Source: Pseudomonadota bacterium (GTDB lineage: Bacteria; Pseudomonadota; Gammaproteobacteria; Burkholderiales; Rhodocyclaceae). Taken from it: a stretch of 64,000 bases of DNA. The translations under genes and the position numbers were made by a program. Of this stretch, positions 12,105-60,853 are shown piece by piece. The notes under the pieces were generated by a model that was given only the letters and a program-made list of their open reading frames with translations, was not told the DNA's origin and searched no databases. Every line of letters starts with the position of its first letter. The stretch's first letter is position 1. The stretch spans positions 82,436 through 146,435 of the forward strand of contig JAGTRW010000012.1 of the NCBI GenBank assembly GCA_018262095.1, written 5' to 3'.

Positions 12105-12292
12105 GAACGCAATTCAAACCAAACGACATGCCCCGCAGGAAATACCCTTGGGGTACAACGGGCACAACGAAGAGCGTCTGTTTGGGAGAGGTTATGCCTC
12201 GCCCGCTGGGTGACTCAGATAAACGATTTAGCTTATTGTTTTTTCGCCGTGTTCGTTGTGTTCGTCGTGGTTAACTGCTTTTTCCAGGTTCA
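12105..12292. repeat. Palindromic MITE/REP-like element, copy 1 (carries a 27-nt nested insert at 12129-12155)
   Basis: Left arm aacc-aaacgaca-[insert]-caacgggcacaacga; right arm tcgccgtgttcgttgtgttcgtcgtggtt; loop and outer flanks homologous to 28714-28880. Confidence 0.85.
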
Positions 12293-15200
12293 TTCACCCG
12301 ACGGGCGGCGCGCGTCGCGCAAGATTTGCCGGGCGCTCGCGAATTCAAACTGCTCGATCTGCCGCGCGAAATGATCGCCGCGCGCGCCCAGAGCGTTGCG
12401 CAGCGTTGCGGCGTGCTGCGTGAACAGCGCGGTGGCGTCGGCGTCATGGTGCGCCAGCTTATCGTCGAGTTCGTCGAACAGCGCGTCGAGCAGCGCCGGG
12501 CGGGGGGCCGTAGTCGTCACCGCCGACGGGGCCGCGAGCGCCGGCAGCGCGGCGGCGAGCGACGCGAGCTCGTCATCGACGGCGGCGACCGCCGCGTCAA
12601 GATCGCGGCTGTCGGGACTGCCGACTTGCTGCGCGCGCAGTGCGTTCTCCAGGCACTGCGCCGCCGCCGCCAACTGGTCGGCGCCGAGCGTCGCACCGGT
12701 GCCGCGCAGCGTATGCGCCAGGCGCTGTGCGGCGGCCTGCTCACCCTGCGCCAGACTGGCGCGCAGCCGCGTCATGTCGTCGGCGTGGGCGTCGACGAAA
12801 CGGCCGAGCAGCTCGCGATACTTGCCAAAATTTCCGCGCAAGCTGGCCAGTCCGCGCTCGAGGTTGAGTCCCGGGATATCGGCGAGTTGCGCTCGTGCCG
12901 CGCCGTCGATCGTCGCTGGCTTTGGCGTCGCCACCACCAGCGTGCTTGGTGCGGGTCTCGCGGCACCGGGCGCACCGGGCGCAGGCGCCAGCGACAGCCA
13001 GAGCAGCAGGCTCTGGTAGAGCGTCGCGGGTTCGACCGGCTTGGAAATGAAGTCGTTCATTCCGGCCTCTTCGCACGCCAGGCGGTCCTCGTCGAAGGCG
13101 TTGGCGGTCATCGCGACGATCGGCCTTGTCTGCCAGCCGGGCAGCGCGCGAATCGCGCGCGTCGCCTGCAGTCCGTCCATTTCGGGCATCTGCATGTCCA
13201 TCAGGATCAGATCGAAGTCGTGCGCGCGCGCCTTGGCCACCGCCTCGCGGCCGTCGCTCGCGGTATCGACGGTGAGCCCGACGCCGTGCAGCAATTCGAG
13301 CGCCACTTCACGGTTGATCGGATGGTCCTCGACGAGCAGGATGCGCGCGCCGCTGTGATTTTTGCGCAACTGGCTCTCGGCATTGGCGGTTTCGGGCGCC
13401 GCGGTGCCGGGCAGGATGCCGTGGCCGCGTTGCAGTCGCGCGGTAAACCAGAAGGTGCTGCCGACGCCCGGCGTGCTGGTCACGCCGACTTCGCCGCCCA
13501 TCAGCTGCGCCAGGCGCCGGGTGATCGCCAGTCCCAGGCCGGTACCGCCGTACTTGCGCGTGGTCGACGCGTCGGCCTGCTCGAACGACTGGAACAGTCG
13601 GCCGATCTTGTCTTGATCGATGCCGATGCCGCTGTCGGCGACCTCGAAACGCACCAGCAGTTCGCCGTCGCGGTCTTCGAGCAGCCTGGCCGAAATCGCG
13701 ATGACGCCGCGCTCGGTAAACTTGACGGCGTTGCCGGCGTAGTTGAGCAAGGCCTGGCGCAGTCGCGTCGGGTCGCCGCGCAGCCAGAGCGGAACGGCGT
13801 CGCCGTCGAGGGTCACGGTGAGCCCCTGATGGCGCGCCGACTCGCCGATGATCGAGCCGACGTTGTCGAGGATCGCCGAGAGGTGAAAATCGGTACTCTC
13901 CAATTGCAGCAGGTCGGCCTCGATCTTCGACAGGTCGAGGATGTCGTCGATGATGGTCAGCAGATGCTGGCCGGCGTTGTCGATCTTGTCGAGCCGTTCG
14001 GCCTGTTGCGGCGTTACCGCGCTGCGCCGCAACAGGTGGGTCAGGCCGATGATCGCATTCATCGGCGTGCGGATCTCGTGGCTCATATTGGCCAGGAAGG
14101 TGCTCTTGGCGCGGTTGGCGGCGTCGGCTTGCTGGCGCGCGCGCGAAAGCTCGGCGGTGCGGCTGTCGACCAGTTCTTCGAGGTGATGGCGATGGCGGTC
14201 GAGTTCTTCGCCGATCAGCTTCTTCTCGGTGATGTCTTCCTTGACCGCGACGTAGTGGCTGATCGAACCGTCGCTCTGGCGTAGCGGCGTGACGATGGCG
14301 AACTCGATATAGTCGCTGCCGTCCTTCTTGCGGTTATGGAACTCGCCTTTCCACGGGATCCCCTGGGTCATCGCCTGCCACAGGCTGTGGTAGGTTTCGG
14401 GCGGCGTTTGCCCCGATTTGAGGATTTTCGGATTTTGGCCGATCACTTCGTCGCGGCCATAGCCGGTGGTTCGCACAAAGGCTTCGTTGACGTATTCGAT
14501 GTTGGCATCGACGTTGGTGATGACGATGCTCTCCGGACTTTGCTCGAGTGCCAGTGAGAGCTTGCGCAATTCCTTTTCGCTCGCCTGACGCTCAGCTTCG
14601 CGCGAGAAATTGTCGAGGGCAAAGCTGACGTCGGTCGCCATCTGCATCAGCAGTTCGCGGATTTCCGCATCAAACGCGTAAAGCTGGCTCGAATAGAGCA
14701 CCAGCGTGCCGATCGCGACGCCATTGCGGGTCAGCGGCAGCGCCGCCGACGAGCGCCATCCGGCGCGCGCGCACTGCTCATGCCAGGGCGCGGTGATCGG
14801 GTCGTTGAGGAAGTCCTGGACCCACACTGGACGAAGTTCGCGCATTGCCGTTCCGGTGGCGCCGCGGCCCAGGGCGCTCTCGGCATCGCAGGAGACCTGC
14901 ACGGCCTTCAGGAAATCGGTCGCGTCGCCAAAGCTGGCGACCGGCCGAACGTTGAGCGAAACGGGATCGGCGAGCCCGATCCAGGCCATCTTGAGGCCGC
15001 CGAACTCGACCGCGCAGCGGCAGATTTCGGGGAACAATTCCGCTTCGCTGGGGCTCCGAACGATGGCCTGACTGCATCCGCTCAAGGCCGCGTAGAACTG
15101 GCCCAGACGCTGGATTTTGAGTTCGGCGTTCTTGCGCTCGGTGATGTCGCGCGAAATGCCGAAAATTCCGATGACCTCACCGCTCTCGTCGCGCAGCGGC

Positions 15201-15772
15201 CCCTTGATCGCCAGAAAGGTCCGCTCGCCGTCGACGGTGGCGATCGTTTCCTCGTAGGTTTTGACCTGCATCGCAGCGATCACCTGCACGTCGTTGGCGC
15301 GGATCATCGCCGCCTGCTGCGGCGGGAAAAGCGCCGTATCGTCGAAGCCGATCGCCTCGCCGGCGCGCTTGCCGATCAGTCGCGCCGTTTCGCGGTTGAA
15401 GAGCAGGTAGCGTCCCGCTTTGTCCTTGGCGAAAATGGCGTCGGGCGAACTGTCGGCGATCACGTCGAGCAATTGCTGGGTGCGAATTCTCTCGTTCTGC
15501 GCTGCGAGCTCGCGCGTTGACGTCGCAGCGACCTGCGCGGCGAGTCGCTTGATCAGTCCGTACAGCAGCAGCGAAGTGACGGCAACGAATAGCCAACCCT
15601 TGACCGTACTGACCAGCGCAATGGTTTGCGGATCGTGCAACAGCAAGGCCAGCAGATGGTCGGAGAGCAGGATCCAGAGGCCGGCGAAGGCGGCATAAAC
15701 GAGAACGACGCGCAGTGCGGCGTCGGGCGTCCGGCGTCGCGCGGTGGGCGGCGTATTTCCCGCTGGGGTCAT
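12290..15772 (-). CDS. Hybrid sensor histidine kinase (2TM, PAS, GAF, PAS, HisKA, HATPase, REC, Hpt)
   Basis: [15 protein letters not shown]-box; GDPTRLRQ; YGGTGLGL; LILMDMQMP receiver; AHTLRG Hpt. Confidence 0.93.
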
Positions 15773-16713
15773 GACGGAACAAGCGGCGCCGTGGTGGACG
15801 GTGCCGGCAACGCGCCACTGTCGAGGTAGCGCATGGCGATCGCGACAAAATCGTCGAAGCCGGCCAGGAAGGCGTCGGTGACGTCGGGGTCGAAATGCGT
15901 GCCGCGGCCGGCGGCGATGATTTCGCGCGCCTGATCGTAGGACATCGCGGTCTTGTACGGGCGCACCGAGATCAGCGCGTCGAAGACGTCGGCGATCGCC
16001 ATCAGCCGCGCTGAAACGGGGATCGCTTCACCGGCGAGGCGGTCGGGGTAACCGCTGCCGTCCCATTTTTCGTGGTGCCAGTGGGCGATTTCCTTGGCCG
16101 TCGCGAGAAAAGCCAGCGGCATTTCGATGTCCACTTCGGCCTGCTCGATGGCGTCGCTGCCGAGCGCGGCATGCGTCTGCATGATCGCCCATTCGTCGGC
16201 GTTGAGCTTGCCCGGCTTGAGCAGGATGTAGTCGGGAATGCCGACCTTGCCGATGTCGTGCAGCGGCGCCGAGCGGCTCAACAAATCGATATAGCGCTCG
16301 GTGAGCGTCGCGGCGAAGCGCGGATGCTGGCGCAGACCGACCGCCAGCCGCTGCACGTAGCCCTGGGTGCGCATGATGTGGTTGCCGGTTTCGGTATCGC
16401 GCGTTTCGGCCAGATGCGCCAGCGCGCGGATGTCGCCGGCATCGGCCAGCGCGGTCAGGAAGACCACCGGAATGTCGCGCGTCGCCGAAGCTTCGCGCAG
16501 CTTGGCGAGCACCGCGTAACCGTCCATTCCGGGCATCATCACGTCGAGCAGGATGAGGTCGGGCGTCGGCTCGCTGTGAGCGACACGCAGACCGACTTCG
16601 CCCGAGTTTGCCGCCAGCACGCGGTAGTGCGGCCGCAGCAGTTCGTAGAGCACGTGCAGGTTTTCGGCGGCGTCGTCGACGATCAGGATGACTGGGTTGG
16701 CGGCAGGTGACAT
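15769..16713 (-). CDS. REC-HD-GYP response regulator with an in-frame internal deletion (possibly defective)
   Basis: ILIVDD...LLDVMMP receiver stops at [10 protein letters not shown] and joins directly to [12 protein letters not shown]; HD-GYP ([16 protein letters not shown]) intact. Confidence 0.85.
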
Positions 16714-16822
16714 ATACGCTAGGCGAGGGCTTGTCAGATGCTCAAGTCTAACCCGATTTTTGCGCAGCGAGATCGGTCTTCGTTGGCGAACGCTCAATAA
16801 ATCGCGGCAGCGGGCGCCATGC

Positions 16823-17329
16823 TCAGGCGGTCTCGTTGATTTGGCCGATCACCTGGTACAAGGTTGGCAGTTGAGCCGGACAGCGCTTGCCGACCGCCGC
16901 CGCTACGGCGTTGAGGCACGACCTGAAGTCGGCGATGCTCTGGCAACTGCGGATCTCGTCGACCACGGGCTGGGAGTGGGCTCCGAAGCTGTCAACCGCG
17001 AAATCGGTGAGCAGGAACTTCGCTTCCGAAAGGATGATTTCATCGTCCAATTCGATGACGCCGCCAGTCGCCGGTTCGAGCGCTCGCGGTGCCGCGGAAT
17101 GCGGCGCGTCGGCGCCGCTGGCGCTGATGAATCCTGCGCCGATCAGAATATCGACTTCCTCAAGGACTTCATGCCTGGGAAAGACCGACTTCTCGAGGAT
17201 TTGCGCCAGGCTTTTCGGCGTATCGAGCAGAATGAGCACGCTGCGCTTCTTCATGCCGAGCTTGTGCACCCGCAGCTTGACTTCATCGACGCCCTTCGGG
17301 GTGATATGCAGCTTAGCCGACAGGTCCAC
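16823..17329 (-). CDS. Conserved hypothetical protein (possible winged-helix-like N-terminus)
   Basis: GTG start with gagg RBS; protein-like composition; co-oriented between signalling genes. Confidence 0.65.
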   Translation of the reverse strand: MDLSAKLHITPKGVDEVKLRVHKLGMKKRSVLILLDTPKSLAQILEKSVFPRHEVLEEVDILIGAGFISASGADAPHSAAPRALEPATGGVIELDDEIILSEAKFLLTDFAVDSFGAHSQPVVDEIRSCQSIADFRSCLNAVAAAVGKRCPAQLPTLYQVIGQINETA

Positions 17330-17387
17330 TTTTTACCTCAACTGTTCAATGATCGGTCATCAATCGCAGCGGTCGCTGGGTCCAATA

Positions 17388-18359: not shown

Positions 18360-18523
18360 TCGTGGTCTCCGCAGGACTGTCTTCAGAACGATGGAATTTC
18401 AATTTTCGGATCGCCGGTTAAGGCGAGTAAACCGCCTGAAGATTACACCATACTATTACTTTCGTATAATCATTCCGCAACTGTGCGCGGTCGTGGCTGG
18501 ATTGTCGGTCTAGACTTCGCTCC

Positions 18524-27471: not shown

Positions 27472-28709
27472 AATCGCTGACCGAGCTTTACCGCATCGGC
27501 CTCGGGCCGTCGAGCAGCCATACCATGGGGCCGCGCTTTGCGGCGCAGGCTTTTCGTGCGGTGCTGCCGGCCGCGACGGCGCGCGTTCGCGTCACGCTCT
27601 ACGGCAGCCTGGCGGCGACCGGGCGCGGCCACCTCACCGATCTTGCGGTCAGCGCGCCGTTCGCGCCGCTGCCGGTCGACCTCGTCTGGGCGCCCGAACG
27701 CGAGTTGCCGCGTCATCCCAACGCCTTGCAGTTTGAGTCGCTCGACGACGCTGGTGCGCTGCTCGCTACGCGCGTCGTCTATTCGGTCGGCGGCGGCGCC
27801 TTGCTGGACGAGGATGGTCAGGCTGACGGCGGCGAAGACGTTTACCCCTACGCCGGCATGGACGAGATTCTGGCGCGCGGCGAGCGCGACGGCCTGCTGC
27901 TCTGGCAGCTTGCCGGCGAGCACGAAGGACCGGCGATCTGGCCGGCGCTCGAGCGAGTCTGGGACGCCATGCGCCGGGCCATCGCGCGCGGCCTCAATGC
28001 CGAGGGAAAACTGCCCGGCGACCTCAAGCTGATGCGCAAGGCGTGCGCCTACCATGCGCGCGCGCAGAGTCTGGCCGGCCACTTCGGCCAGACGGCGCTG
28101 CTTTTCGCCTACGCGCTGGCCGTTTCGGAAGAGAACGCGGCGGGCGGCGAGGTGGTCACCGCGCCGACCTGCGGTGCCTGCGGCGTGTTGCCCGCGGTGC
28201 TCCATTTCCTGCAGCAGCAGTCGCAGCTTTCCGACGAGAAGATCTGCCGCGCGCTGGCGAGCGCCGGGATGATCGGCAACCTGATCAAGCGCAACGCGTC
28301 GATCTCGGGCGCCGAAGTCGGCTGCCAGGGCGAGGTCGGCACCGCCTGCGCGATGGCCGCTGCCGCCGCAGCGCAACTGCTCGGCGGTTCGCTGCGGCAG
28401 ATCGAATACGCCGCCGAGATGGGGCTCGAACACCACCTGGGGCTGACCTGCGACCCGATCGGCGGTTACGTGCAGATTCCGTGCATCGAACGCAACGCCA
28501 TCGCCGCAGTGCGCGCGGTCGATTGCGCGGCGTACGCGCTACTCTCCGACGGCGCGCACATCGTGTCGTTCGACGAAGTGGTGCGCACCATGGCGGAGAC
28601 CGGCCGCGACATGAAAGCGGGCTACCGCGAAACGGCGCAGGGAGGGCTCGCCAAGATCCACCTCTCGCGTCTCAAAGGCGCCCGCAGCGTTCCCGGGATG
28701 GGGAGCTGA
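27468..28709 (+). CDS. sdaA: Fe-S L-serine ammonia-lyase, compact single-chain type
   Basis: [48 protein letters not shown]. Confidence 0.93.
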
Positions 28710-28713
28710 AAGT

Positions 28714-28880
28714 TGAACCTAGAGAACGCAATTCAAACCACAACGACACAACGGGCACAACGAGGAACGTGGGTTTTTGGAAGTTCTATGCATCACCCGT
28801 TGGGTGACCGACAAAAACGATTTTGCTTATTGTCTTTCCGCCGTGTTCGTTGTGTTCGTTGCGGTCAACTGCTTTTCCCA
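28714..28880. repeat. Palindromic MITE/REP-like element, copy 2 (no nested insert)
   Basis: Left tgaacctagagaacgcaattcaaaccacaacgacacaacgggcacaacga; right ccgccgtgttcgttgtgttcgttgcggtcaactgcttttccc. Confidence 0.85.
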
Positions 28881-30445
28881 TGCTGAATCCGATGGGCGAC
28901 GCGGTCGATGAGTTGGCAAGAATCGTCGCGCTGATGACGCGCAGCGTCGAATTTCGCCTGCAGCAAGATTGGCGCGCCGCGCTGGCCTGCCTCGACGAGG
29001 CCGTCGCGATCAATCCGCGCTTGCCGCTCGGTCACATCGATCGCGCGCGGCTGCTCGCCGAGCTCAAACGTTATGAAGAGGCGCTCGACGGCTACGATGC
29101 TTTCCTGATGCACGCCGGGAATTCGCCGGAAATATCCGACCTGCGCCAGGAACTGCTCGCTACGGTTTTCGCCGACCTGGATCAGCGCCTGATCGAGCGG
29201 CCTGGCGACCAGGCGGCGCGGCTTGCGCGCGCCAACCTGTGGCGCAGGACGCAGCATTACGCCGAGGCGCTCGCCGATTATTCGGCGATCGTCGAGCGCG
29301 ATGCGCAGCATGCCGATGCGCTCAATCATCAGGGCAGCGTGCTGCTTGCGCTCGGTCGCCACGATCAGGCAATCGACGCCTATACGCGCGCGGTCGCGGC
29401 GGCGCCGCAGCGCGCCGAACTTCACTACAACCTGGGCAATGTGCTGCAGCAGCTGGGCCGCTTCGGCGAGGCGCGCGCTGCCTACCGCCAGGCGCTCGCG
29501 CGATCGCCTGAGTTTGCCGAAGCGCAGCTCGAGCTCGCTCACTGCGACCTTGCCGAAGGCCATTATGCGGCCGGCTGGGCGGCCTACGAATGGCGCTGGC
29601 GCACCGCCCAGATGCAGGGCGACCGTTTGCCGAGCGCGCAGCCGCCGTGGCTCGGCACTCCCGCGCTGAGCGCAAAGACGATCCTGGTGTGGGCCGAGCA
29701 GGGCGCCGGCGACACGCTGCAGTTCGTCCGCCTGGTGCCGCAACTGCTCGCCGACGCGGCGCACGTGATCCTGCGCGTGCAGGCGCCGCTGCGCCGGCTG
29801 GTCGAATCGCTCGACCCGCGCATCGAGGTGATCGGCGACGATCAGCCGCTGCCGGCGCACGATGTCCAGGTTCCCTTGCTGAGCCTGCCGCTGGCGCTCA
29901 GGCTCGATGGCGTGCCGCCGTGCCCGGCGCCGTATCTGCGTGCCGACCCGCGCGACGTCGCGCGCTGGCGCGAGCGGCTGGGTGCCGCCCAGCGGCTGCG
30001 CGTCGGCATCGCCTGGGCCGGGCGGCAGCAGGGATTGCCCAACCCGACGCGCGACATCGCGCCGGCGCAGCTCGCGCCGCTCGCCGCGCTGCCGGTCGAT
30101 TTCATCAGCCTGCAATTGCCGGTCGCCGAGGCGCTGCCGCAGCTGCGCATCTTTACCGACGAGCTCGCTGACTTTGGCGAGACGGCGGCGCTGATCGAGA
30201 CGCTCGATCTGGTGCTCAGCGTCGATACTGCGGTCGCGCATCTCGCCGGTGCGCTCGGCAAGCCGTGCTGGCTGCTGCTGCGCGCCTCGGGCGAATGGCG
30301 CTGGCAGCGCGAGCGCAGCGATTGCCCGTGGTATCCGTCGCTGACGATCTTTCGTCAGCCGGAGGCGGGCGATTGGGCTGGCGTGATCTCGCGCGTCGCT
30401 GCGGCGCTGCTCGTCGGTGCCGGCACCGGTCTGAACGGCCGCTAA
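28880..30445 (+). CDS. TPR-repeat protein with C-terminal glycosyltransferase family 9-like domain
   Basis: TPR repeats (AELHYNLGNVL); EQGAGDTLQFVR; DLVLSVDTAVAHLAGALGKP; WYPS. Confidence 0.85.
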   Translation: MLNPMGDAVDELARIVALMTRSVEFRLQQDWRAALACLDEAVAINPRLPLGHIDRARLLAELKRYEEALDGYDAFLMHAGNSPEISDLRQELLATVFADLDQRLIERPGDQAARLARANLWRRTQHYAEALADYSAIVERDAQHADALNHQGSVLLALGRHDQAIDAYTRAVAAAPQRAELHYNLGNVLQQLGRFGEARAAYRQALARSPEFAEAQLELAHCDLAEGHYAAGWAAYEWRWRTAQMQGDRLPSAQPPWLGTPALSAKTILVWAEQGAGDTLQFVRLVPQLLADAAHVILRVQAPLRRLVESLDPRIEVIGDDQPLPAHDVQVPLLSLPLALRLDGVPPCPAPYLRADPRDVARWRERLGAAQRLRVGIAWAGRQQGLPNPTRDIAPAQLAPLAALPVDFISLQLPVAEALPQLRIFTDELADFGETAALIETLDLVLSVDTAVAHLAGALGKPCWLLLRASGEWRWQRERSDCPWYPSLTIFRQPEAGDWAGVISRVAAALLVGAGTGLNGR

Positions 30446-30493: not shown

Positions 30494-33400
30494 TCACGAC
30501 GCCGTGGCGTTACGAATTCGCTGCGTCAGCAAGTCAAGTTCGGCGATCACTGCATTGGCGCATTCGCCGATCGTCGCCTGGTCGGCTGCGCCGTGAAGCG
30601 CCGACTGCAAGCGCTGCGCCGCCTCGCTCAGGGCGCTGGCGCCGACGTTGCCGGCGGCGCCGACCAAGGCGTGCGTCAGTTGCCCGACGCGCTCGATGTC
30701 GTTGGCCGCCAGCGCCGCGGCCAGCGCTTGGCCGTTGTCGCCGTGGCCGTCGGCGAAAAGCGTCAGCAGGCGCAGGTATTTTTCGTGATTGCCGCGCACC
30801 AGCGTCAGGCCGCGCTTGACGTCGAGTCCGGGAATCGCCGCCAGCGCGGCTCGCCAGTCTGCCGGTTGGCCGGCTTGAGCGGCGGCGCTGGGCGTTGCGT
30901 CGGGGCAGTCCACCAGCGACGAGCGCTCGCTCGGCAGCCACTTGAGCAGTGTCGCGTAGAGCACGCCGGGATCGACCGGTTTGGCGACAAAATCGTTCAT
31001 TCCCGCGGCGCGGCAGGCGCGCTGATCCTCTTCGAAGGCGTTGGCGGTCATCGCCAGGATCGGCGTTTGCGCGCGGCCGGGCAGCGCGCGGATCGCGCGC
31101 GCGGCCTCGAGTCCGTTCATCAGCGGCATCTGGATGTCCATCAGGATCAGCTGGTAGTCGCGGGCCCGCGCCTGGTCGACGGCCTCGATACCGTCGCTGG
31201 CGACGTCGACCGCGAGGCCTGCGCCGTGCAGCAGTTCGAGCGCGACTTCGCGGTTGATCGCGTTGTCTTCGGCGAGCAGCACCAACGCGCCGCCATGCTG
31301 GCGCCGCAGCTCGGCCTCGGCGTCGGGCGTGCCGTCGGGCGTCGCCTGCGGCATGATGCCGCGGCCGCGCCCCAGGCGCGCGGTGAACCAGAAGGTGCTG
31401 CCTTTCCCCGGTTCGCTGTCGACGCCGGCCTCGCCACCCATCAGTTGGGCGAGGTGGCGGGTAATTGCCAGTCCCAGACCGGTACCGCCGAACTTGCGGG
31501 TGGTCGATGCGTCGGCTTGCTCGAAGACCTTGAACAGGCCGGCGGCCTGCTCGGCGCTGATGCCGATGCCGGTGTCGGCGACCTCGAAACGAACGACGAT
31601 CTCGTCGCCGTTCTCGGCAAGCAGCAGCGCGCGCAGCGCGATCGACCCGTGCTCGGTGAATTTGATCGCGTTGCTGGTGTAGTTGAAGAGCGCCTGGCGC
31701 AGCCGCGTCGGGTCGCCGCGCAGCCAAATCGGCACGCCGTCGGGATCAATCTCGATCGCCAGTCCCTTGGCCTGCGCCTGGTCGGAAATCAGCGAACGCA
31801 CATGGTCGAGAACGGCGTTGAGCGAAAAATTGGTGTGCTCGAGTTGCAGCTTGCCGGCCTCGATCTTGGAAATGTCGAGGATGTCGTTGATGATCGACAG
31901 CAGGTGGTTGCCGGCGGTTTCGATCTTGGCCAGCCGCTCGGCCTGCTGCGGCATCGGCTGACTGCGGCGCAGCAGATGGGTCAGGCCGATGATGGCGTTC
32001 ATCGGCGTGCGGATCTCGTGGCTCATATTGGCCAGAAAGCTGCTCTTGGCGAGGCTCGCGGTCTCGGCCGCGTCCTTGGCCTGGCGCAGCATCTGTTCGG
32101 TCTGTTGGCGCGCTCTGATGTCGGTGACGAAGCTGATGAAGCGGTTGGGCAGCTCGCCGCTCGCCGGTTGGTAATAGAAAGTCACCTCGATCGGAATCAG
32201 GCGGCCGTCGCGATGACGCTCGGCCGTCGTGATCGTCGCCGAACCTTGTTCGCGCAGCGCCTGCGTGCGCTGCCGGAAATCGGCCGCGGCAAAACTCGGG
32301 TCGATGTCGGCGACGCAAAGCGCGGTCAGTTCGTCGGGGTGGTAGCCGATCAGCCGCGCGGCGTACTCGTTGACGTAGAGGATGCGTCCGCTGTCGGCGT
32401 CGATCCAGTGGATACCGATTCCGGCGCGATCCATGGCGAACTGCGTTTCGGCCAGATGCAGCGATTTTTGCTGCAGTTCGGCGGTGCGCGCTTCGACCAG
32501 GTGCTCGAGCTGCTGCTGCGATTTTTCAAGCTCGGTCTCGATGCGCTTGCGTTCGCTGATGTCGCGCGATACGCCGAGCACCCCGATGATCGTCCCGTCA
32601 CCGTCGTACATCGGCGACTTGCTGGTTTCGAACAGGCCGCGGTAGCCGCCGACCGCGAAGTTGAGCCATTCCTCGTTGCGCAGCGGCCGGCCCGCGGCCA
32701 TCGCCGCACGATCGTGGTCGCGGAAGAAATCGGCGAGCGTTTCGTCGACGAAGTCGTAATCGGTACGGCCGACGATTTCGTCCTCCTTGGCGCCGAACAA
32801 ACGCTCGAATTCGGGGTTGCACGACAGATAGACGCCATCGACGTCCTTGAGCCAGACCAGGTCGGGAATGGTCGTGACCAGCGCTTTGAGCCGCGCGCGC
32901 TCGAGTTCGAGCTGACGGAACGGCGCCTGAACGCCGGCGACGAACAGCGCGCGATAGATCATCAGGTAGGCGATCGCCTTATAGACGTGACCGAGCAGAT
33001 TGAAGACGTCGGTGGGCTCGGCGTAGAGCGTCAGGAACAGCTCGGCGAGCGCCTGAACCCACGCCGCCGTGGCGAGCCAGAGCAGATCGCCGTTGTCCGT
33101 GCGGCGCGCCTGACGATAGAGCAGCAACGCGGCGATCGCGTAAAGTCCGGCGAGCAGGTACTCGCTGCCGATCTTGAACGAGGTCAGTCCTTCGCCGGCG
33201 ACGAAGGTGCGCGGCAGCCAGTCGACATGGACGAGCCCCAGCCAGTAAACGCTGGCGGAAAGCGCCAGCGCGGCGGCCAGGCTGGCGTAGCACGACGCTG
33301 CCGACCAGCGTCGCGCCGGCAGCAGCGCGACCGCGAGCAGCGCAACAGCGACGACCAGCCGTCCGGCGAGCCAGAAATTGATCGCTTTTTCCGTCCCGCT

Positions 33401-33745
33401 CTCGGTGACCAGCGTCGGCATTCCGGCGTACGACAGGATGTGCGCGAAATCGATCAGCGCCACGGCGAGAAAAGCGGCGCCGAGAATTACCAAGTGGTTG
33501 TTCTTTTCCCGGCTTCTGAAATTCCACGCCAGTGAAAAAACCATCGCCGAGACGACGATGGCGATGAATTCGCAGAAGGTATGCAGCGGCAGGTAGCTTT
33601 GCTGTGCGGCGAAAAAGCGGGTCGCCGGCAGCAACTCGCCGAGCACCAGCAGCAGCGTCAGGATCACCGCCCAGCAGGCCTGCGCCAAGGCGTATCGGGG
33701 TACGCCCGGTGGACTTGGCAAGCGGCTGGGCTGCTCGTTCTTCAT
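30494..33745 (-). CDS. Hybrid sensor histidine kinase (MASE3, 2 PAS, HisKA, HATPase, REC, Hpt)
   Basis: MASE3 motifs [19 protein letters not shown]; [14 protein letters not shown]; LILMDIQMP; THALVG Hpt. Confidence 0.92.
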
Positions 33746-33829
33746 GTGATGCCCCGGTTGAGTTTGGTCGATTGTAGTGCGCAAGACGCCGCGCGAACAA
33801 GCGATCTTCGCCGCAGACCGGGGCTGGGC

Positions 33830-52015: not shown

Positions 52016-52038
52016 TCGGCGCTTGGCGTGCGCGGCGA

Positions 52039-53102: not shown

Positions 53103-53118
53103 TGGCACCGGAATTGCT
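53103..53118 (+). promoter_or_regulatory. Sigma-54 promoter of nifVWZM
   Basis: TGGCAC-CGGAA-TTGCT, full consensus, just upstream of the ggagg RBS. Confidence 0.9.
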
Positions 53119-53139
53119 CTAGAGAATCCGGGAGGTCTT

Positions 53140-54315
53140 ATGACACAGCCAGGACACGATTTTCTAGTCATCAACGACACGACGCTGCGCGACGGCGAGC
53201 AGTCTGCCGGCGTCGCGTTCAGCGTCGACGAAAAGCTCGACATCGCGATCCATCTCGACGCGCTTGGCGTTCCCGAGCTGGAGATCGGCATCCCGGCGAT
53301 GGGCGAGACCGAGCGCGAGAGCATCCGGGCGGTCGCTGCGCTCGGCTTGTCGTCACGGCTGATGGTGTGGAGCCGAATGCACGCCGGCGACATCGACGCG
53401 TGCTGTGGTCTGGGCGTTCAGCTGATCGATATCTCGGTGCCGTCGTCCGACCAGCACCTGTCGTTCAAATTGCGGCGCGACCGCGGCTGGTTGCTGCAGA
53501 ACATCGGCAAGCATATCGCCCGGGCGCGCGACGCGGGTCTCGAAGTGTGCATCGGCGCCGAGGATTCTTCACGCGCCGATCCCGAATTCCTGGCGCGAAT
53601 CGCCGACGCTGCGCAAAGCGCCGGAGCGCGCCGCATTCGCTTCGCCGACACGCTCGGCGTTCTCGATCCATTTGCCGTCGCACAGCGCATCGGCGATTTG
53701 CGCCGGACGACCGACCTCGAGATCGAAATGCACGCGCACGACGATCTCGGCCTGGCCACCGCCAACACGCTGGCGGCGGCGCGCGCCGGCGCAACGCACG
53801 TCAATACCACGGTCAACGGCCTCGGCGAGCGCGCCGGCAACGCGCCGCTCGAAGAGGTCGTGCTTGGCCTGCGCCGCTGTTACGGCATTGAAACCGGCGT
53901 CGACCTGCGCAAATTCCCGGCGCTTTCAGAAAAAGTGGCGAGCGCTTCAGGTCGCCCGGTGGCCTGGCAGAAGAGCATCGTCGGCGAGGGCGCGTTTACG
54001 CACGAAGCCGGAATCCACATCGACGGTCTGCTCAAGCACCCCGACAATTACCAAAGTTTCGATCCCGCGCTGGTCGGCCGCCGTCACCGCTTCGTTCTCG
54101 GCAAACACTCGGGGAGCGGCGGGGTGCAGGCGGTCTATGCCGATCTTGGCCAGGTCGTCGCCGATGTCGAGGCGGTGCTGCTGATCGCCCGAATCCGTGA
54201 TTTCGTCTATTCGGTCAAGCGTCCGCCGGCGTCTGCCGAATTGCTGTCGCTGCTCGCCGAGTTGCGAGCTGCGACTGCTGAGCCGTTCGATTCATTGCCC
54301 AGGAGCGCCCCATGA
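53140..54315 (+). CDS. nifV: Homocitrate synthase NifV
   Basis: [43 protein letters not shown]; nif context. Confidence 0.95.
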
Positions 54316-54644: not shown

Positions 54645-55102
54645 TGCACTCGCGCTGGGATCTGGGCGACAGCGTTCGCGTCATCCGCAACGTGCGCAAC
54701 GACGGCACCTATTGCGGCGCGGCGACCGGCGACCTGCTGATCCGTCGCGGCAGCGTCGGCGCGGTCGTCGATATCGGCACTTTCCTGCAGGATCAGATCA
54801 TCTACTCGGTGCATTTCATCGACGACGACCGCATCGTCGGCTGCCGCGAGGAAGAACTCGCTGACGCCGCCGAGCCCTGGATTCCGAGCATCTTCGAGTC
54901 GAGGGAATGGGTCCGCGCGCGCCGCGTGCTTTCTCTGGGAAGCGCGCTGTGCGTTCCGCGCGGCGCGCTCGGTCAGGTGCTGCGGGTGGTCCGCGAGGAC
55001 GACGCGGCGCTCTACCACGTCCATTTCGACTGCCTGCCGGGACGCACGCTGGCCGTTCCCGAAGCGGCGCTGATGTCGCTCGCGGAGCCGTTCGATGCCT
55101 GA
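54644..55102 (+). CDS. nifZ: NifZ (P-cluster maturation)
   Basis: VRNDGTY...GSVG...FLQDQIIYSVHF...VGCREEEL. Confidence 0.93.
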   Translation: MHSRWDLGDSVRVIRNVRNDGTYCGAATGDLLIRRGSVGAVVDIGTFLQDQIIYSVHFIDDDRIVGCREEELADAAEPWIPSIFESREWVRARRVLSLGSALCVPRGALGQVLRVVREDDAALYHVHFDCLPGRTLAVPEAALMSLAEPFDA

Positions 55103-55934: not shown

Positions 55935-55950
55935 TGTCTAGTCGCGCTGA

Positions 55951-56229
55951 TCAGTCGTCATCGTCGCCGACGCCGTCGCGGCGCGCAACGGTCTGCGGGT
56001 CGCAGGTGATCGGACGGTAGATTTCGACGCGGTCGCCGGCGCGCAAGGAGGCTTCGGGCTTGATGATCCGGCCGAAGATGCCGACCTTCTGCGTGGAGAG
56101 GTCGAGGTGCGGAAACATGTCGAGAATTCCCGAGCGTGCGATCGCGTCATTGACCGTCGCGTCGTCGGGCACCTCGATGGTCAGCCAGATTTGTTGCACG
56201 TTTTCCGAGTAGGCGATACCGACTTGCAT
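55951..56229 (-). CDS. rnfH: RnfH
   Basis: MQVGIAY...KVGIFG...GDRVEIYRPITCDP. Confidence 0.92.
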   Translation of the reverse strand: MQVGIAYSENVQQIWLTIEVPDDATVNDAIARSGILDMFPHLDLSTQKVGIFGRIIKPEASLRAGDRVEIYRPITCDPQTVARRDGVGDDDD

Positions 56230-56248
56230 GAGCGTCTCCTGAGCGTGA

Positions 56249-56932
56249 TCAATGGCAAGCTGCGGTGGCCGCTGCGGCCGGGAGCTGAGTGCTGGCCGCG
56301 CGCGCCGCACGGCGTTCGCAGTGCTGTTTGGCCGCCAGCAGCAGGCCGAGCACCAGGAAGCCGGCCGGCGGCAGGATCATCATCAGCACGCCACCGTAGT
56401 TGGGCAGCACCGTCGTCTCGAGAAAGGCGAAGTTCGCTCCGAGCAGCAGGCTCGCCTGCGCGAACAGCGTTCCGGCGCCGATCAGCTCGCGGATCAGACC
56501 GATCAGCGTCAGCGCCAGCGTGAATCCGAGTCCCATCGCCAGTCCGTCGAGCGCCGACGCCAACACGCCGTGGCGCGAGGCAAACGCCTCGGCGCGTCCG
56601 AGCACGGCGCAATTGACGACGATCAGCGCGATGAACAGGCCCAGCACGCGGTAAAGGTCGTGCATCCAGGCATTGAGCGCCATGTCGACGACGGTGACCA
56701 GCGTCGCGATCAACACGATATAGACCGGAATTCGCACCTGCGGCGATACAAAATTGCGCAACGCCGAGATGATCATGTTGGCGCAGACCAGCACCGCGGT
56801 GGTCGCCAGTCCCATTCCCAAGCCGTTGGTTCCGCTGGTGGTGACCGCCATCGTCGGACACATGCCGAGCATCTGCGAGAAAACGACGTTCTGATCCCAG
56901 AGGCCGTCCTTGACGATTTTCCGGTAGTCCAT
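56249..56932 (-). CDS. rnfE: Rnf complex subunit E
   Basis: [28 protein letters not shown]. Confidence 0.93.
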
Positions 56933-56933
56933 G

Positions 56934-57551
56934 CTATTTCCCTTCGAGAATTTCCTGACGGTGGGCGGCGAAGAACTCGAGGCCGCCCTTGACCGCCTTG
57001 ACGACGGCGCGCGGCGTGATCGTCGCGCCGGCGAACTGGTCGAAAACGCCGCCGTCTTTCTTGACCGCCCATTTTTCGGCCGGCGGCGAAGCCAGCGACT
57101 GGCCTTCGAAGCTGCGAATCCACTTCGATTTGGCCAGCTCGATCTTGTCGCCGAGCCCCGGCGTTTCCTGATGCTTGACGACGCGAGCGCCGAGCAGCGT
57201 ACCGCTCGCGTCGATGCCGATGATGACGACGACGTCGCCGGCATAGCCGCGGCCGGAAACCTGGAATACCGCGCCGTTGACCTTGCCGGCCTGGCGCGAA
57301 AGGTAGAGGGTGACCGCTTTGCCGTCGCTCGCGGCGATTTTCATGGTGTCCTTGAGCAACTCGTTGTCGGCGAAGCCCTCGGGCAGAACCTGAACCAGCG
57401 ACGCCTGCAGGTCGCGCTGCTCGGCCTGGCGGATGCCGTCGTGCGTCAACTGGTTGCTGAGCGCCAGCGCGCCGCTGGTGAGCATGGCGATGATCGCCAG
57501 CGAGAGCGGCTGGTAGCTCAGTTTGTCGCGCCACAGCGCCAGAGTGCTCAT
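56934..57551 (-). CDS. rnfG: Rnf complex subunit G
   Basis: [18 protein letters not shown]-binding DQFAGATIT. Confidence 0.93.
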
Positions 57552-58645
57552 GATTTGGCCCTTTCAACGTCAGCGTCGAGCGGTGCGCCGCGCCAGTTGC
57601 GGCCGAGGATTCGCGGGCGCAGATAGCGGTCGATCACCGGCGTCAGCGCGTTCATCAGCAACACCGCGAAGGCGACGCCTTCGGGGTAGCCGCCCCAGGT
57701 GCGGATGACGTAGGTGAGAAAGCCGCAGCCGCCGGCGAAGAGCAACTGACCCAGCTTGGTGTTCGGCGAAGTGACGTAGTCGGTGGCGATGAAAAAGGCG
57801 CCGAGCATCGCGCCGCCCGAGAGCAGGTGAGTGGCGACGTCGAGATAGCGGGTCGGGTCGACGGCGTGGGCGATCGCCGCCGGCAGCGCGATGCCGGCCA
57901 GCATGGCGGCCGGGATATGCCAGCTGATGATGCGCAGCGCGAGCAGCACCACGCCGCCGGCAGCGATCAGCAGAGAAGCGGTCTCGCCGAGGCTGCCCGA
58001 ACGCGCGCCGGCCAGCGAGTTGGCGGGCGCGCTCGCCGCGGCGAGCGAATGCACGAGGTCGATGCCGCGCGACCATTCGGTCTTGGCAAAGCCGAGCAGC
58101 GTCGCGCTCGATACCGCGTCGAGCTTGGGAATGCCGTTGATGAAGATCATCAGGCCCTGATGGAAGTCGGGCGCGGCAGCGGCAGTGATCGGCAGCGGCG
58201 CGACCCAGACGGTCATCTGTACCGGGAAGGAAATCAGCAGGAAGACGCGAGCGACCATCGCCGGGTTGAAGAGGTTGAAGCCGATTCCGCCGAACACCTG
58301 CTTGCCGAGTATCGTCGCGAAGAGCCCGCCGACGACGCCGATCCACCAGGGCGACCAAGGCGGCAGCGAGAGCGCCAGCAGCCAGCCGGTGAGCAGCGCC
58401 GAGCCGTCGGAAAGCTGCGGCGCCGCTTGGCGTCCGGCGAGCTTGATGCTGACGAGCTCGCCGAGCAGTGCGGAAAGGACGGTGATCAACCAGAGCAGGA
58501 TCGCCGGCCAGCCGTAGAGCCAGAAGCCGTACAAGGTCGCGGGGACGAGCGTCGCCGCGACGCTGAGCATGATTCGCGCAACGCCGTTGCTGGCCAGCGC
58601 GTGCGGCGCGGTCGGTGGCGGGGCGGTGAGCAGGGTGGTGTTCAT
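57548..58645 (-). CDS. rnfD: Rnf complex subunit D
   Basis: KQVFGGIGFNLFNPAM, DAVSSAT, GSLGET, FIATDYVTSP. Confidence 0.93.
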   Translation of the reverse strand: MNTTLLTAPPPTAPHALASNGVARIMLSVAATLVPATLYGFWLYGWPAILLWLITVLSALLGELVSIKLAGRQAAPQLSDGSALLTGWLLALSLPPWSPWWIGVVGGLFATILGKQVFGGIGFNLFNPAMVARVFLLISFPVQMTVWVAPLPITAAAAPDFHQGLMIFINGIPKLDAVSSATLLGFAKTEWSRGIDLVHSLAAASAPANSLAGARSGSLGETASLLIAAGGVVLLALRIISWHIPAAMLAGIALPAAIAHAVDPTRYLDVATHLLSGGAMLGAFFIATDYVTSPNTKLGQLLFAGGCGFLTYVIRTWGGYPEGVAFAVLLMNALTPVIDRYLRPRILGRNWRGAPLDADVERAKS

Positions 58646-60153
58646 GCGGCGGTCTCCGTTGCGGCAAGCGTTGCGCTGGCCGCTTGCGCGGCTTTCTGCG
58701 CGGCGCGATCGGCCTTGCGTTTGGCGGCGGCAAGCGCTTTTTCGCGGGTTTCGCGCTCAAGGCGTTCGGCGCGCTCGGTGGCCAGGCGCTTGGTGGCGTC
58801 AAGGCGCAGCTTGTCGCGTTGCTGTGACCAGAGCTCGCCCTTGGCGTGCGTGAAGTACTGGACGAGCGGGATGTGCGACGGGCAGATGTAGGCGCAGCAG
58901 CCGCAGGCGATGCAGTCGGAGAGTCCGAGCGCTGCCGCGCCGTCAAGATTGTCGATGCGGACGTTGGCGGCCATCTCGAGCGGCAGCAGCCCGATCGGGC
59001 AGACGCTGGTGCACTTGCCGCAACGGATGCACGGACCGGCTGCCGGGGTGGCGATCTCCTCTTCATTCAATGCCAGGATCCCGGCGCAGCCCTTGACGAT
59101 CGGCACCTTGGCGTGCGGCAATACGGCGCCCATCATCGGGCCGCCCATCAGCAGACGCGCCGGCTCGCTCTTGAGGCCGGCGAAGGCGAGCAGGTCGGAC
59201 GCTAGCGTGCCGATCGGCGCCAGGATGTTGCCGGGCTGCCAGACGGCGCCGCCGTTGATCGTCACGATGCGGCGGATCAGCGGCTCGCCGAGACGAACCG
59301 CGCGATGCACGGCGTTGGCGGTGCTCACGTTGTTGACGATCACGCCGACGTCGGCGGCGCGGCAGTCGGAAGGCACTTCCTTGCCGGTCAGCGTCTGGAT
59401 CAACTGGCGGTCCGAACCCATCGGGTAGCGCGACGGCACCGGCCGCAGCTTGATCTCGGGAAAGTGTACGGCCGCCTTGCGCATGGCGGCGATCGCTTCG
59501 GGCTTGTTGTCCTCGATGCCGAGCAGCGCCTCGCTGGCGCCGGTGGCGTGCAACATCAGGCGAACGCCGTCGATGACGTCGGCGGCAAAATCGCGCATCA
59601 CGCGGTCGTCGCACGAGAGATAGGGTTCGCATTCGCCGCCGTTGACGATCAGCGTCGTGATCCGGGTCCGCTTGCCGAGCGCCAGCTTGACCGACGACGG
59701 AAAGGTCGCCCCGCCGAGGCCGACGACGCCGGCGGCGGCAACGAGTTCGGTGATCGCCTCGGGCGAGAGCGCGAAGGGATCAGCCGCAACACTCGCTTCG
59801 ATCGCGCGCTCGTCGCCGTCGGCTTCGATGGTGATCGCGTTGAACGGCAGTCCCGACGGATGCGGTGCCGTGATTTCGCCGATGGCGACGATGGTCCCCG
59901 AAGTCGGCGCGTGGATCGGCGCCGAAATCCGGCCCTGCGCTGCGCCGATCAACTGCCCCTGCAAGACCTTTTGTCCGACCAGAACGGTCGGCCGCGCGGG
60001 CTGGCCGACGTGTTGCAGCAAAGGCACGTAGAGCCGCGCCGGCAAGGGCAGTTGCCGCAGCGGGGCGTCGGCCGCCGGACGCTTGCGGTCGTCCGGATGA
60101 ACGCCCCAACCGGGGACGTTGAGCGTGTGCAGGAATTTTTCGATGAGTCCCAT
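58642..60153 (-). CDS. rnfC: Rnf complex subunit C
   Basis: GLGGATFP, NGGECEPY, GGPMMG, CIRCGKC and CIACGCC ferredoxin motifs. Confidence 0.93.
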   Translation of the reverse strand: MGLIEKFLHTLNVPGWGVHPDDRKRPAADAPLRQLPLPARLYVPLLQHVGQPARPTVLVGQKVLQGQLIGAAQGRISAPIHAPTSGTIVAIGEITAPHPSGLPFNAITIEADGDERAIEASVAADPFALSPEAITELVAAAGVVGLGGATFPSSVKLALGKRTRITTLIVNGGECEPYLSCDDRVMRDFAADVIDGVRLMLHATGASEALLGIEDNKPEAIAAMRKAAVHFPEIKLRPVPSRYPMGSDRQLIQTLTGKEVPSDCRAADVGVIVNNVSTANAVHRAVRLGEPLIRRIVTINGGAVWQPGNILAPIGTLASDLLAFAGLKSEPARLLMGGPMMGAVLPHAKVPIVKGCAGILALNEEEIATPAAGPCIRCGKCTSVCPIGLLPLEMAANVRIDNLDGAAALGLSDCIACGCCAYICPSHIPLVQYFTHAKGELWSQQRDKLRLDATKRLATERAERLERETREKALAAAKRKADRAAQKAAQAASATLAATETAA

Positions 60154-60163
60154 GGTCATCTCC

Positions 60164-60694
60164 TCAGGCGGCGGCTGGCGGCTTGGGCCAGACCCAGTGT
60201 TGCAAGGTGACCGCCACCGGCCGCATGACGACCGCCTCGGTCGGGCAGCGTTCGACGCAGTTGCCGCAACCGGTGCAGGCTTCGCGGATGACGCTGTGGA
60301 TCTGTTTGGCGGCGCCGACCATGGCGTCGGTCGGGCAGACCTTGAGGCAACGGCAGCAGCCGATACAGAGGTCTTCGGAGATGGTCGCCAGTTGCGGTCC
60401 CGCGTCGACCAGCGCAGCGAGATCGAGTTCAACGCCGAGCCGGGCGGCCAGCGCCGACGCCAGCGCCTTGCCGCCGGGCGGACAAGCGGCGACGCTCGCC
60501 GTTCCTTCGGCGATGGCGCGGGCAGCGGCCGGGCAACCGGCCATTCCGCACTGGCCGCAATTGGATCCGGGCATCATCGCTTCGATCTCGTCGATCAGCG
60601 GGTCGCCTTCGACGGCGAACTTGCGTGCGGCGACACCGAGGCCCAGACCGAGTGCGGCACCGAGCAGGGTCAGGCTGAAGATGGCGGCGATCAT
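60164..60694 (-). CDS. rnfB: Rnf complex subunit B (short, nif-associated type)
   Basis: PGSNCGQCG..GC; CIGCCRC...CPTDA; CTGCGNC. Confidence 0.93.
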   Translation of the reverse strand: MIAAIFSLTLLGAALGLGLGVAARKFAVEGDPLIDEIEAMMPGSNCGQCGMAGCPAAARAIAEGTASVAACPPGGKALASALAARLGVELDLAALVDAGPQLATISEDLCIGCCRCLKVCPTDAMVGAAKQIHSVIREACTGCGNCVERCPTEAVVMRPVAVTLQHWVWPKPPAAA

Positions 60695-60711
60695 GTCAAT
60701 ACCTCCTTTTT

Positions 60712-60853
60712 AACCACGGCGGCATGCACCGCAGGAAATACCCCTGGGGTACGGCGGGCACGGCGAAAAACTCAAGCAGTGCAGTTCCTTGCTCGTTCTC
60801 TTTTATCGGAACGATATAGGCCGTTGTCTTTTCGCCGTGTTCGCTGTGGTCAA
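60712..60853. repeat. Palindromic MITE/REP-like element, copy 3 (27-nt nested insert at 60725-60751) between rnfA and rnfB
   Basis: Left aaccacggcggca-[insert]-cggcgggcacggcga; right tcgccgtgttcgctgtggtcaa. Confidence 0.8.

Follow-up and report, generated by a model that had tools for sequence, protein, structure and literature searches.

Small gene-free mobile elements are represented in bacteria by the miniature inverted-repeat transposable elements (MITEs), such as the Correia/NEMIS elements of Neisseria and the enterobacterial ERIC elements, and a small open reading frame (ORF) inside a long stem within a host transcript is found in the intervening sequences of 23S rRNA, which are excised by RNase III. 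Here, three related hairpins, copies 1 to 3, are described in a 64,000-nt stretch of DNA (hereafter, the window) from an uncultured Rhodocyclaceae bacterium of wastewater (contig JAGTRW010000012.1, positions 82,436 to 146,435). Their arms consist of 9-nt units, and it is considered likely that the three loci belong to a single Rhodocyclaceae family of mobile elements that are small, contain no gene and form hairpins, a family organized in two layers and with inner arms of the type that encloses GxxExxY nuclease genes.

Copies 1 and 2 resemble MITEs in being small, gene-free and multi-copy, with terminal inverted repeats, a duplication of fixed length and a long hairpin, as well as in the intergenic or intra-operon setting of their family and in the difference between filled and empty sites among strains. 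Unlike MITEs, the window family has no known parent insertion sequence and its interior does not look like a deleted transposase gene. In addition, the nonamer hairpin also occurs without transposon ends (copy 3; loci L053, L065 and L085), and the same ends carry a second interior. In cyanobacteria, very small mobile repeats nested in other repeats were reportedly found by Elhai and colleagues in 2008; a 27-nt module that is present here in varied positions of at least three hairpin families is placed as such an insertion would be, and its sequence and host differ.

The short tandemly repeated repetitive (STRR) sequences of filamentous cyanobacteria are 7-bp tandem units that form hairpins in operon spacers, e.g., hupS–hupL, and their function was unknown in 2009 (PMC2670836). 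Copy 3 lies likewise in an operon spacer (rnfA–rnfB) and its arms are tandem short repeats, but the window unit has 9 nt instead of 7, the termini are fixed (AACCRC...GYGGTT) and the host is betaproteobacterial. Intervening sequences of 23S rRNA with an S23p (four-helix-bundle) ORF, e.g., in Coxiella, are regarded as selfish (PMC4990558), whereas the window elements are located in mRNA spacers or between genes, not in rRNA, and contain no ORF. Repetitive extragenic palindromes (REPs) measure 20–40 nt, and one of their ends bears a GTAG or CGTC tag (PMC3733652). The window elements are also abundant extragenic palindromes at gene ends, but they have no such tag, are much longer, and carry terminal repeats and 5-bp duplications.

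A further likeness is to the cassettes of the GxxExxY family (TIGR04256 / PF13366 PDDEXK_3), a very widespread family of small nucleases; their genes are usually enclosed, as a loop, by a conserved long-range helix of 9-nt repeats. The period of 9, the termini and the strand composition are shared, and the arms of copies 1 and 2 are nearly those of a Caulobacteraceae cassette. The window copies differ in having neither ORF nor relic, and the transposon ends of copies 1 and 2 were not seen on L106/L200, the only cassette examined for them. In a 2012 survey of PD-(D/E)XK proteins, the function of PF13366 was given as ‘Unknown’, with many transfers between lineages. In our own search, no solved structure related to GxxExxY by sequence was found. 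Neither nonamer hairpins nor their link to GxxExxY were described in the literature retrieved, and the same holds for the pairing of 7-nt arms with four-helix-bundle genes and of 9-nt arms with GxxExxY genes.

Three Related Hairpins in the Window

The three related copies are intergenic, have the same orientation and contain no coding gene. Their refined spans are 12098–12293, 28706–28887 and about 60707–60861, with lengths of 196, 182 and about 155 nt. The G+C content of the window is 64.6%, and all three copies are local low-GC islands. Using the right-arm 17-mer TCGCCGTGTTCGYTGTG, five matches with up to three mismatches were obtained in the window, all within the three copies, against 0.82 expected, and none of 100 shuffles gave five matches. 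The repeat finder linked copies 1 and 2 over 103 nt at 83% and all three copies over 42 nt at 81–93%, and a profile built from the family matched copies 1, 2 and 3 at E = 3e-44, 6e-45 and 2e-28, with no other match in the window. Chance similarity among the copies was ruled out by the 17-mer counts, the repeat finder and the profile matches, and the places, common orientation and intergenic setting given in the initial annotation were borne out. Generic inverted-repeat searches for further long palindromes in the window gave GC-rich background only.

The inner module begins with AACCAC, followed by RRCG-RR-CAC units, a loop of 56–66 nt in the window copies, and complementary units ending in GTGGTT; the 5' arm is devoid of T and the 3' arm of A. 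In all three copies, the termini of this module are AACCAC/GTGGTT or close variants, and a period of 9 was the best for the right arms of copies 1–3 and the left arm of copy 2. This is the arm architecture that had been proposed initially (AACCAC plus 9-nt units, then ..GTGGTT). The loop with an inner TCACCC/GGGTGA hairpin, also noticed before, is indeed common to copies 1 and 2, and the loop of copy 3 differs.

Terminal Repeats, Target Duplications and Mobility

The right-arm pattern was scanned against one genome per species. Matches were mostly due to chance, with a clear cluster in Rhodocyclaceae, chiefly Propionivibrio sp. Deming_bin.52, for which at least 20 full copies were found in about 30 loci examined. 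With the family profile, genomes of Propionivibrio, of Accumulibacter-related bacteria and of other Rhodocyclaceae gave matches at E = 1e-28 to 1e-59. Outside the hairpin, the aligned copies carry 16-bp terminal inverted repeats with the consensus CCTTAAAACCTCAGTT ... AACTGCCTTTTCTAGG (CCTnrAAAC..CAGTT). Just outside these, perfect 5-bp repeats were found in 15 of 19 hairpin-bearing copies, including copies 1 and 2. Since these repeats are direct and not inverted, they are target-site duplications. They vary between copies and match within a copy (TTGAA, TTCAT, TTAAA, TTTAT, GTTAA, CTGAA, TTTAA, ATTAT and ATAAA were seen), with the A+T-rich consensus WTNAW. In this G+C-rich genome, it is mostly the stop codons at the ends of genes that offer such targets.

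Copies 1 and 2 are therefore complete miniature inverted-repeat elements with a hairpin as interior, and they move as classical elements with terminal repeats and duplications, which the initial annotation had overlooked. It had taken the outer ends for imperfect inverted repeats; the outermost 4–5 nt (tgaa.., ..ttca) proved to be the direct target-site duplications, while true inverted terminal repeats do exist further inward, CCTAGAGAACGCAATT and AACTGCTTTTCCCATG in copy 2. These repeats and duplications point to a DDE-type transposase as the mover of copies 1 and 2, and not to the GxxExxY nuclease.

Filled and empty sites could be compared for two copies. At the site of copy 2, position 28704 is joined to 28882 in contigs of related strains, which skip 177 nt, with GCTGAA fitting both sides, and in more distant relatives the two flanking genes almost abut. 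For copy 3, metagenome contigs 90–95% identical to the window join 60694 to 60865 with 11 nt between the rnfB start and the rnfA stop. In wastewater metagenomes, where the source organism is frequent, the arms were found at 10–90x the depth of the flanks, and loose ends run into many different flanks. Taken together, copy number, depth, the empty alleles of copies 2 and 3, the unfilled rnfA–rnfB spacer of most relatives, terminal repeats and duplications support the abundant non-autonomous mobile element that had been suggested from the three copies. Copy 2 had no match in the plasmid collection. A similar-looking Propionivibrio copy (L022) is not its orthologue, as the flanking genes differ.

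A gene-free element of 177 nt from Propionivibrio sp. Deming_bin.52 has the same terminal repeats and WTNAW 5-bp duplications around an unrelated interior, a G+C-rich palindrome CCCTCATCCCCGGCCCTTCTCCC...GGGAGAGGGTTGGGGTGAGGGC (L050 693–890, L067 3128–3300 and L280–L295). This element occurs at least 18 times in that genome. The duplications were perfect in nearly all of 18 copies, and its subterminal sequence had 18 exact matches in the genome collection, all in 177–200-nt elements of one genome. In L050, it stands head to tail with a hairpin element, with the common duplication TTTAA. Since the hairpin element and the 177-nt element have the same ends, one transposition system probably moves both. 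According to ISfinder summaries, the IS1380 family has CC-starting ends and 4–5-bp duplications, which would fit CCT ends and 5 bp; an IS1380-type origin is a tentative lead.

Anatomy of Copies 1 and 2

The neighbors of copy 1 are a gene for a LolD-like ABC ATPase (+) and, convergent to it, one for a hybrid sensor kinase (−); copy 2 is flanked by an L-serine dehydratase gene and a tetratricopeptide repeat (TPR) protein gene, both on the plus strand. The features of copy 1, all given for the plus strand, are as follows:

12098–12102 (+): left target-site duplication TTCAT, identical to 12289–12293 and placed like the duplications of 15 of 19 related copies.
12103–12114 (+): left terminal inverted repeat, shortened, CCGAACGCAATT, which aligns with CCTAGAGAACGCAATT of copy 2 and the family consensus CCTTAAAACCTCAGTT.
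12115–12128 (+): outer left arm CAAACCAAACGACA, which pairs with GTCGTGGTT of the right arm in the predicted fold.
12129–12155 (+): 27-nt stem-loop module TGCCCCGCAGGAAATACCCTTGGGGTA, which splits the left arm and is predicted to fold as a separate small hairpin.
12156–12174 (+): inner left-arm units CAACGGGCA CAACGAAGAG, an exact match to the pattern CRRCGGGCACRRCGA within the family-conserved stem.
12175–12238 (+): loop with the inner hairpin TCGCCCGCTGGGTGA at 12199–12213, common to copy 2.
12239–12272 (+): right arm TTTTTTCGCC GTGTTCGTT GTGTTCGTC GTGGTT, period 9, without A.
12273–12288 (+): right terminal inverted repeat AACTGCTTTTTCCAGG, matching the family right end AACTGCCTTTTCTAGG.
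12289–12293 (+): right target-site duplication TTCAT, overlapping the stop codon (TCA on +) of the convergent sensor-kinase gene.

Copy 2 is organized in the following way:

28706–28710 (+): left target-site duplication CTGAA, containing the TGA stop of the serine dehydratase gene and identical to 28883–28887.
28711–28717 (+): AGTTGAA, seven additional bases that separate the duplication from the left terminal repeat, read from the sequence and the empty allele.
28718–28733 (+): left terminal inverted repeat CCTAGAGAACGCAATT.
28734–28769 (+): left arm CAAACCAC AACGACAC AACGGGCAC AACGAGGAACG, without T.
28770–28833 (+): loop with the inner hairpin TCACCCGTTGGGTGA at 28793–28807.
28834–28866 (+): right arm CTTTCCGCC GTGTTCGTT GTGTTCGTT GCGGTC, without A.
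28867–28882 (+): right terminal inverted repeat AACTGCTTTTCCCATG.
28883–28887 (+): right target-site duplication CTGAA.

The seven bases AGTTGAA of copy 2 are possibly a piece of flank brought along from the donor site. The TPR gene downstream of this copy has in-frame ATGs at 28880, inside the right terminal repeat, and at 28892, which is present in the empty allele; the insertion may thus have supplied the gene with a new upstream start codon (28880).

The 27-nt module TGCcCCGCAGGAAATACCCyTGGGGTA is located inside the left arm of copies 1 and 3, and copy 2 does not have it. As a stem-loop of the form TGCCCCGCAGGAAATnCCyTTGGGGTR, it is also present in L165 (2380–2398), L011 and L079 at differing positions, so that at least three hairpin families carry it, those of the CACGGCG, CGCAAAG and GTCATTCCGG..CCGGAATG types. 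In appearance, it is either a mini-insertion nested in these hairpins or a module for binding protein or RNA that they share.

Folding of the Hairpins

A 19-bp inner stem was conserved in the 15 aligned family copies, and compensatory changes were observed in 7 of the 26 predicted pairs (inner stem plus inner hairpins) of the same copies. Two pairs are G·U in 10–12 of these 15 copies, and 12 of the 15 contain the inner TCACCC/GGGTGA hairpin. In 17 of 18 copies, better folding was obtained for the sense (+) strand than for its antisense, the conserved G·U pairs favoring the plus strand. The stems of the window copies depend on G·U pairs, and copies 1 and 2 look old. Regarding known RNA families, Rfam gave no match in the window at gathering score, none at E <= 10 for copy 1 and none in nine related loci. 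No promoter or terminator consensus was found at any copy, the terminator scan permitting loops of 3–8 nt only.

GxxExxY and Four-Helix-Bundle Genes within Periodic Arms

A GxxExxY consensus was used as a probe on the loci fetched by the arm pattern and gave two matches. In a Caulobacteraceae genome (L106), a complete gene was found between hslV and hslU, scoring 131 bits with TIGR04256 (cut-off 35) and also matching PF13366. It lies inside the arms TTCATCACAACGGGCACAACGGATGCACAACGAACACGACGGG and CCCGTTGTGTTCCTTGTGATCTCGCCGTGTTCGTTGTGATGAA, which have CACAACGGGCACAACG and TCGCCGTGTTCGTTGTG in common with copies 1 and 2. The left-arm 16-mer CACAACGGGCACAACG and the same four non-Watson–Crick positions as in copies 1 and 2 constitute an independent agreement.

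To survey the family, 80 relatives of the L106 gene from Brevundimonas, Bacteroidota, Verrucomicrobiota, Planctomycetota, Sumerlaeota and one candidate-phylum genome were taken, and the 150 nt upstream were compared with the 150 nt downstream of each gene (inverted-repeat score of at least 35). Inverted arms flank 65 of the 80 genes, whereas none were obtained in 77 and 142 control pairs (0/219). The arm period is 9 nt in 44 of these 65 and 10 nt in 9; ACCRC or TCAC stands near the 5' end in 57, ACCRC being the usual start, and the ORF is always placed exactly in the loop. The likeness to hairpins flanking GxxExxY genes, which the initial annotation had suggested, therefore holds, and hairpins that enclose an ORF were found, with GxxExxY genes between nonamer arms in other bacteria.

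Compensatory substitutions keep the two arms paired. The 37 pairs compared across 25 Brevundimonas-type cassettes were 94.3% paired versus 85.4% after shuffling, and pairing as high as this was seen in none of 500 shuffles; sliding the partner by one to three columns lowered pairing to 31–52%. Both sides had changed in 18 of the 37 pairs, e.g., with C-G replacing A-U at one and the same position of each of the four units, and G·U outnumbered A·C by about 56 to 24 on the gene strand. The hslV–hslU position is common to 16–23 of the 25 cassettes (depending on whether one or both flanking genes are required), the others being located elsewhere.

Four-helix-bundle genes (TIGR02436, verified for five loci), which have weak similarity to Avd of diversity-generating retroelements, were found in comparable surroundings. 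By the same comparison of flanks, inverted arms surround 53 of 78 such genes on metagenome and viral contigs (L296–L379), the highest control score being 23. Here the period is 7 nt in 46 of the 53, with units such as GGCAGGT, GGGTGTA, TAGCTGG and AGGGGCC, which recall the 7-bp STRR repeats of cyanobacteria. Since the arm type goes with the enclosed gene, 9 nt with GxxExxY and 7 nt with the four-helix bundle, the 9-nt arms of the window belong to the GxxExxY type. Cassettes of either kind mostly point in the same direction as the neighboring genes, which may fit expression by read-through. No other cargo genes were found inside nonamer arms in the loci examined.

In a Chromatiales genome (L058 5240–5543), three right arms stand in a row, two of the CTTCGTG and one of the CGCCGTG type, cut by the contig end and accompanied by a GxxExxY gene and a C-terminal fragment of a second copy. 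This locus may be a tandem or nested array of partial cassettes.

Copy 3 and the rnfA–rnfB Spacer

Copy 3 lies in the spacer between rnfA and rnfB within the minus-strand rnf operon, antisense to the operon, and splits a normally tight junction. Its features are the following:

60712–60724 (+): outer left arm AACCACGGCGGCA.
60725–60751 (+): 27-nt stem-loop module TGCACCGCAGGAAATACCCCTGGGGTA.
60752–60771 (+): inner left arm CGGCGGGCACGGCGAAAAAC.
60772–60827 (+): loop, unlike those of copies 1 and 2 except for AACGATATAGGCCGTTGT (repeat finder).
60828–60851 (+): right arm CTTTTCGCCGTGTTCGCTGTGGTC.
60852–60861 (+): residual outer segment AATCATGTTT, the element lying between the rnfB start (60694) and the rnfA stop (60863).

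This copy would be either decayed or devoid of transposon ends from the outset. One metagenome contig contains a variant whose loop is different, and an assembled contig from an RNA-labelled library spans the copy.

In most of 80 relatives compared, the rnfA–rnfB spacer measures −7 to +28 nt; in about 11 of the 80, it holds 100–250 nt of other sequence. Periodic-arm hairpins were read in five of these approximately 11 long spacers (L124, L125, L148, L165 and L177). The arm units are CGCAAAGA in L124 and L165, CGCAGAGAG in L125 and CACGAAGAG in L148, and L177 has a hairpin of the GTCATTCC..GGAATGAC type. The element of L148 is located at the same point as copy 3, with like flanks and other arm units; it may be either a replacement or the same insertion, its arms having been altered. 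The spacer is either an insertion hot spot or a place of arm turnover. ORF-less hairpins with other units (CACCAAGT, CGCAGAGG, CACAGAGG, CGCAAAGA and CACGAAGAG) are numerous in Rhodocyclaceae genomes, and besides the rnfA–rnfB spacers they were read at L011 154–255, L044 5020–5112 and L120 4555–4702.

A public gene call places a 56-aa ORF wholly within copy 3 (L118 1329–1499 corresponds to copy 3), with no Pfam hit. Since such arms contain no stop codons in any frame, they are a likely source of spurious ‘hypothetical proteins’ in databases.

Proposed Mechanism and Alternative Explanations

In the favored reading, a transposase encoded elsewhere would cut and paste, or copy, elements with CCTnrAAAC..CAGTT ends, and the same enzyme would move the internally unrelated 177-nt element. 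The hairpin of copies 1 and 2 would have been picked up between transposon ends and then spread by ordinary transposition, and the window hairpins would be ORF-less relatives of GxxExxY cassettes, either satellites or unoccupied sites. Each copy, when transcribed, is predicted to add a 130–160-nt stem-loop to the host transcript.

Several observations weigh against this reading. Concerning mobility, neither the window nor the loci examined contained a transposase gene between such terminal repeats, only gene-free elements, so that the mover of copies 1 and 2 is putative; as already noticed in the initial annotation, the window has no mobilizing gene, nor was a GxxExxY homologue or another element with these ends found there. 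No empty allele of copy 1 was seen in metagenome contigs. Copy 3 shows no clear terminal repeats and no clear duplication at its ends, and its boundaries are approximate because the empty allele there has a different spacer and the ends are unclear. Its transcription is suggested by the single RNA-labelled contig, all such data being assembled contigs. Regarding structure, the RNA folding z-scores of copies 1, 2 and 3 were −2.1, −1.0 and −3.0, modestly better than shuffled sequences, and with G·T disallowed the window copies did not rise above the GC-rich background, with no exceptional Watson–Crick palindromes. The ‘palindromes’ first described are weak at the Watson–Crick level.

The connection with the cassettes has its own counterweights. 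Seen from sequence, the window hairpins are linked to them by arm design and by one near-identical arm pair, the right arm of which was the search pattern. Neither a GxxExxY nor a four-helix-bundle gene was found in the 1.47 Mb searched (the window and loci rich in Rhodocyclaceae DNA). The loops of the window copies contain no GxxExxY gene, the copies having cassette-like arms without being cassettes, and the best match of the loops to GxxExxY had E = 0.29 over 72 reading frames. With no GxxExxY coding trace in the loops, descent from an ORF-bearing cassette is not demonstrated.

An inverse relation, in which the ORF-less nonamer hairpins are primary and represent unoccupied targets of a selfish GxxExxY nuclease gene, so that the window copies would be empty sites and not cassette derivatives, is rather improbable. 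The nuclease would recognize and cut its own hairpin type, and the gene would then be copied into the loop. Such homing would agree with the tracking of the enclosed gene by the arm type, with the frequency of ORF-less hairpins of many unit sequences, with loops free of coding relics and with the invariable position of the ORF in the loop. However, orthologous sites that share their arms but differ in the presence of the ORF were not seen, the four-helix-bundle protein is not a nuclease, and no GxxExxY gene was found in the Rhodocyclaceae DNA searched. Moreover, homing is unnecessary for copies 1 and 2, the terminal repeats and duplications of which indicate spread by transposition.

These same duplications and the empty alleles in close relatives weigh against the explanations in terms of host function. 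That the copies are structured regulatory RNA genes (small RNAs or cis-acting leaders) kept for the benefit of the host is very unlikely: they occupy unrelated contexts, copy 3 is antisense to its operon, Rfam gave no match even at E = 10 and no promoter- or terminator-like site was found at any copy, even though the conserved stem with compensatory changes, the one-strand G·U pairs and the conserved inner hairpin would suit such an RNA. There is equally little to expect from host transcription terminators or insulators, i.e., bidirectional stem-loops with T-runs that are merely repeat-like. The position of copy 1 between convergent genes and the T-runs after the outer stem on both strands (AACTGCTTTTT on the plus strand, AACTGAGGTTTT on the minus strand of related copies) would be expected of them, but copy 3 stands inside the rnf operon and is crossed by the contig from the RNA-labelled library, the terminator scan was empty, though limited to loops of 3–8 nt, and empty alleles with target duplications show insertion. 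Finally, REP/REPIN-type palindromes moved by a RAYT (HUH tyrosine) transposase are also intergenic, palindromic, multi-copy and placed at gene ends and operon spacers. Transposition of the IS200/IS605 single-strand type is not known to make such 5-bp duplications, and the window elements measure 140–200 nt, start with AACCAC and have terminal inverted repeats, which leaves this origin a negligible probability.

Taken alone, the three copies preferred here as mobile elements are ordinary genome parasites, a new miniature transposable element family of an uncultured wastewater bacterium that adds 150–200-nt stem-loops at gene ends. Their interest lies in the arm design, which ties them to the GxxExxY family and to a general arrangement of a gene in a repeat-built hairpin, with ORF-less hairpins of the 9-nt and 7-nt types scattered through genomes. 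As a tentative extension, to which we give clearly less than even chances, the nonamer hairpins with GxxExxY and the heptamer hairpins with four-helix-bundle (Avd-like) genes might form an unrecognized class of selfish cassettes, each with a small protein gene in the loop of a helix of protein-specific tandem short repeats. The helix would allow residence in host operons, and even in rRNA, as an excisable RNA stem, and the protein would recognize its own arm type for spread, the ORF-less hairpins being satellites or empty targets. If so, the cyanobacterial STRR repeats would gain a biological context. GxxExxY function, STRR-type hairpins and the arm-derived ‘hypothetical protein’ artefacts thereby converge on a single question, that of a possible action of the protein on the DNA or RNA of its own arms.

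Genomic Surroundings

The RnfB protein of the source organism had its best match in the species collection at 84% identity. The sensor genes at 12290–15772 and 30494–33784, both on the minus strand, are paralogues with 75–78% identity over more than 1 kb (12992–14128 versus 30932–32068). They are 17,940 nt apart; one adjoins copy 1, and a single gene separates the other from copy 2, which precedes it. In addition, a sigma-54-type promoter motif, TGGCAC-N5-TTGC, was found at 53103–53117, about 25 nt upstream of an ATG at 53141. The N-terminus encoded from this ATG resembles, by eye, homocitrate or isopropylmalate synthase. Should the region have a role in nitrogen fixation, the motif and this gene would suit the rnf genes nearby.

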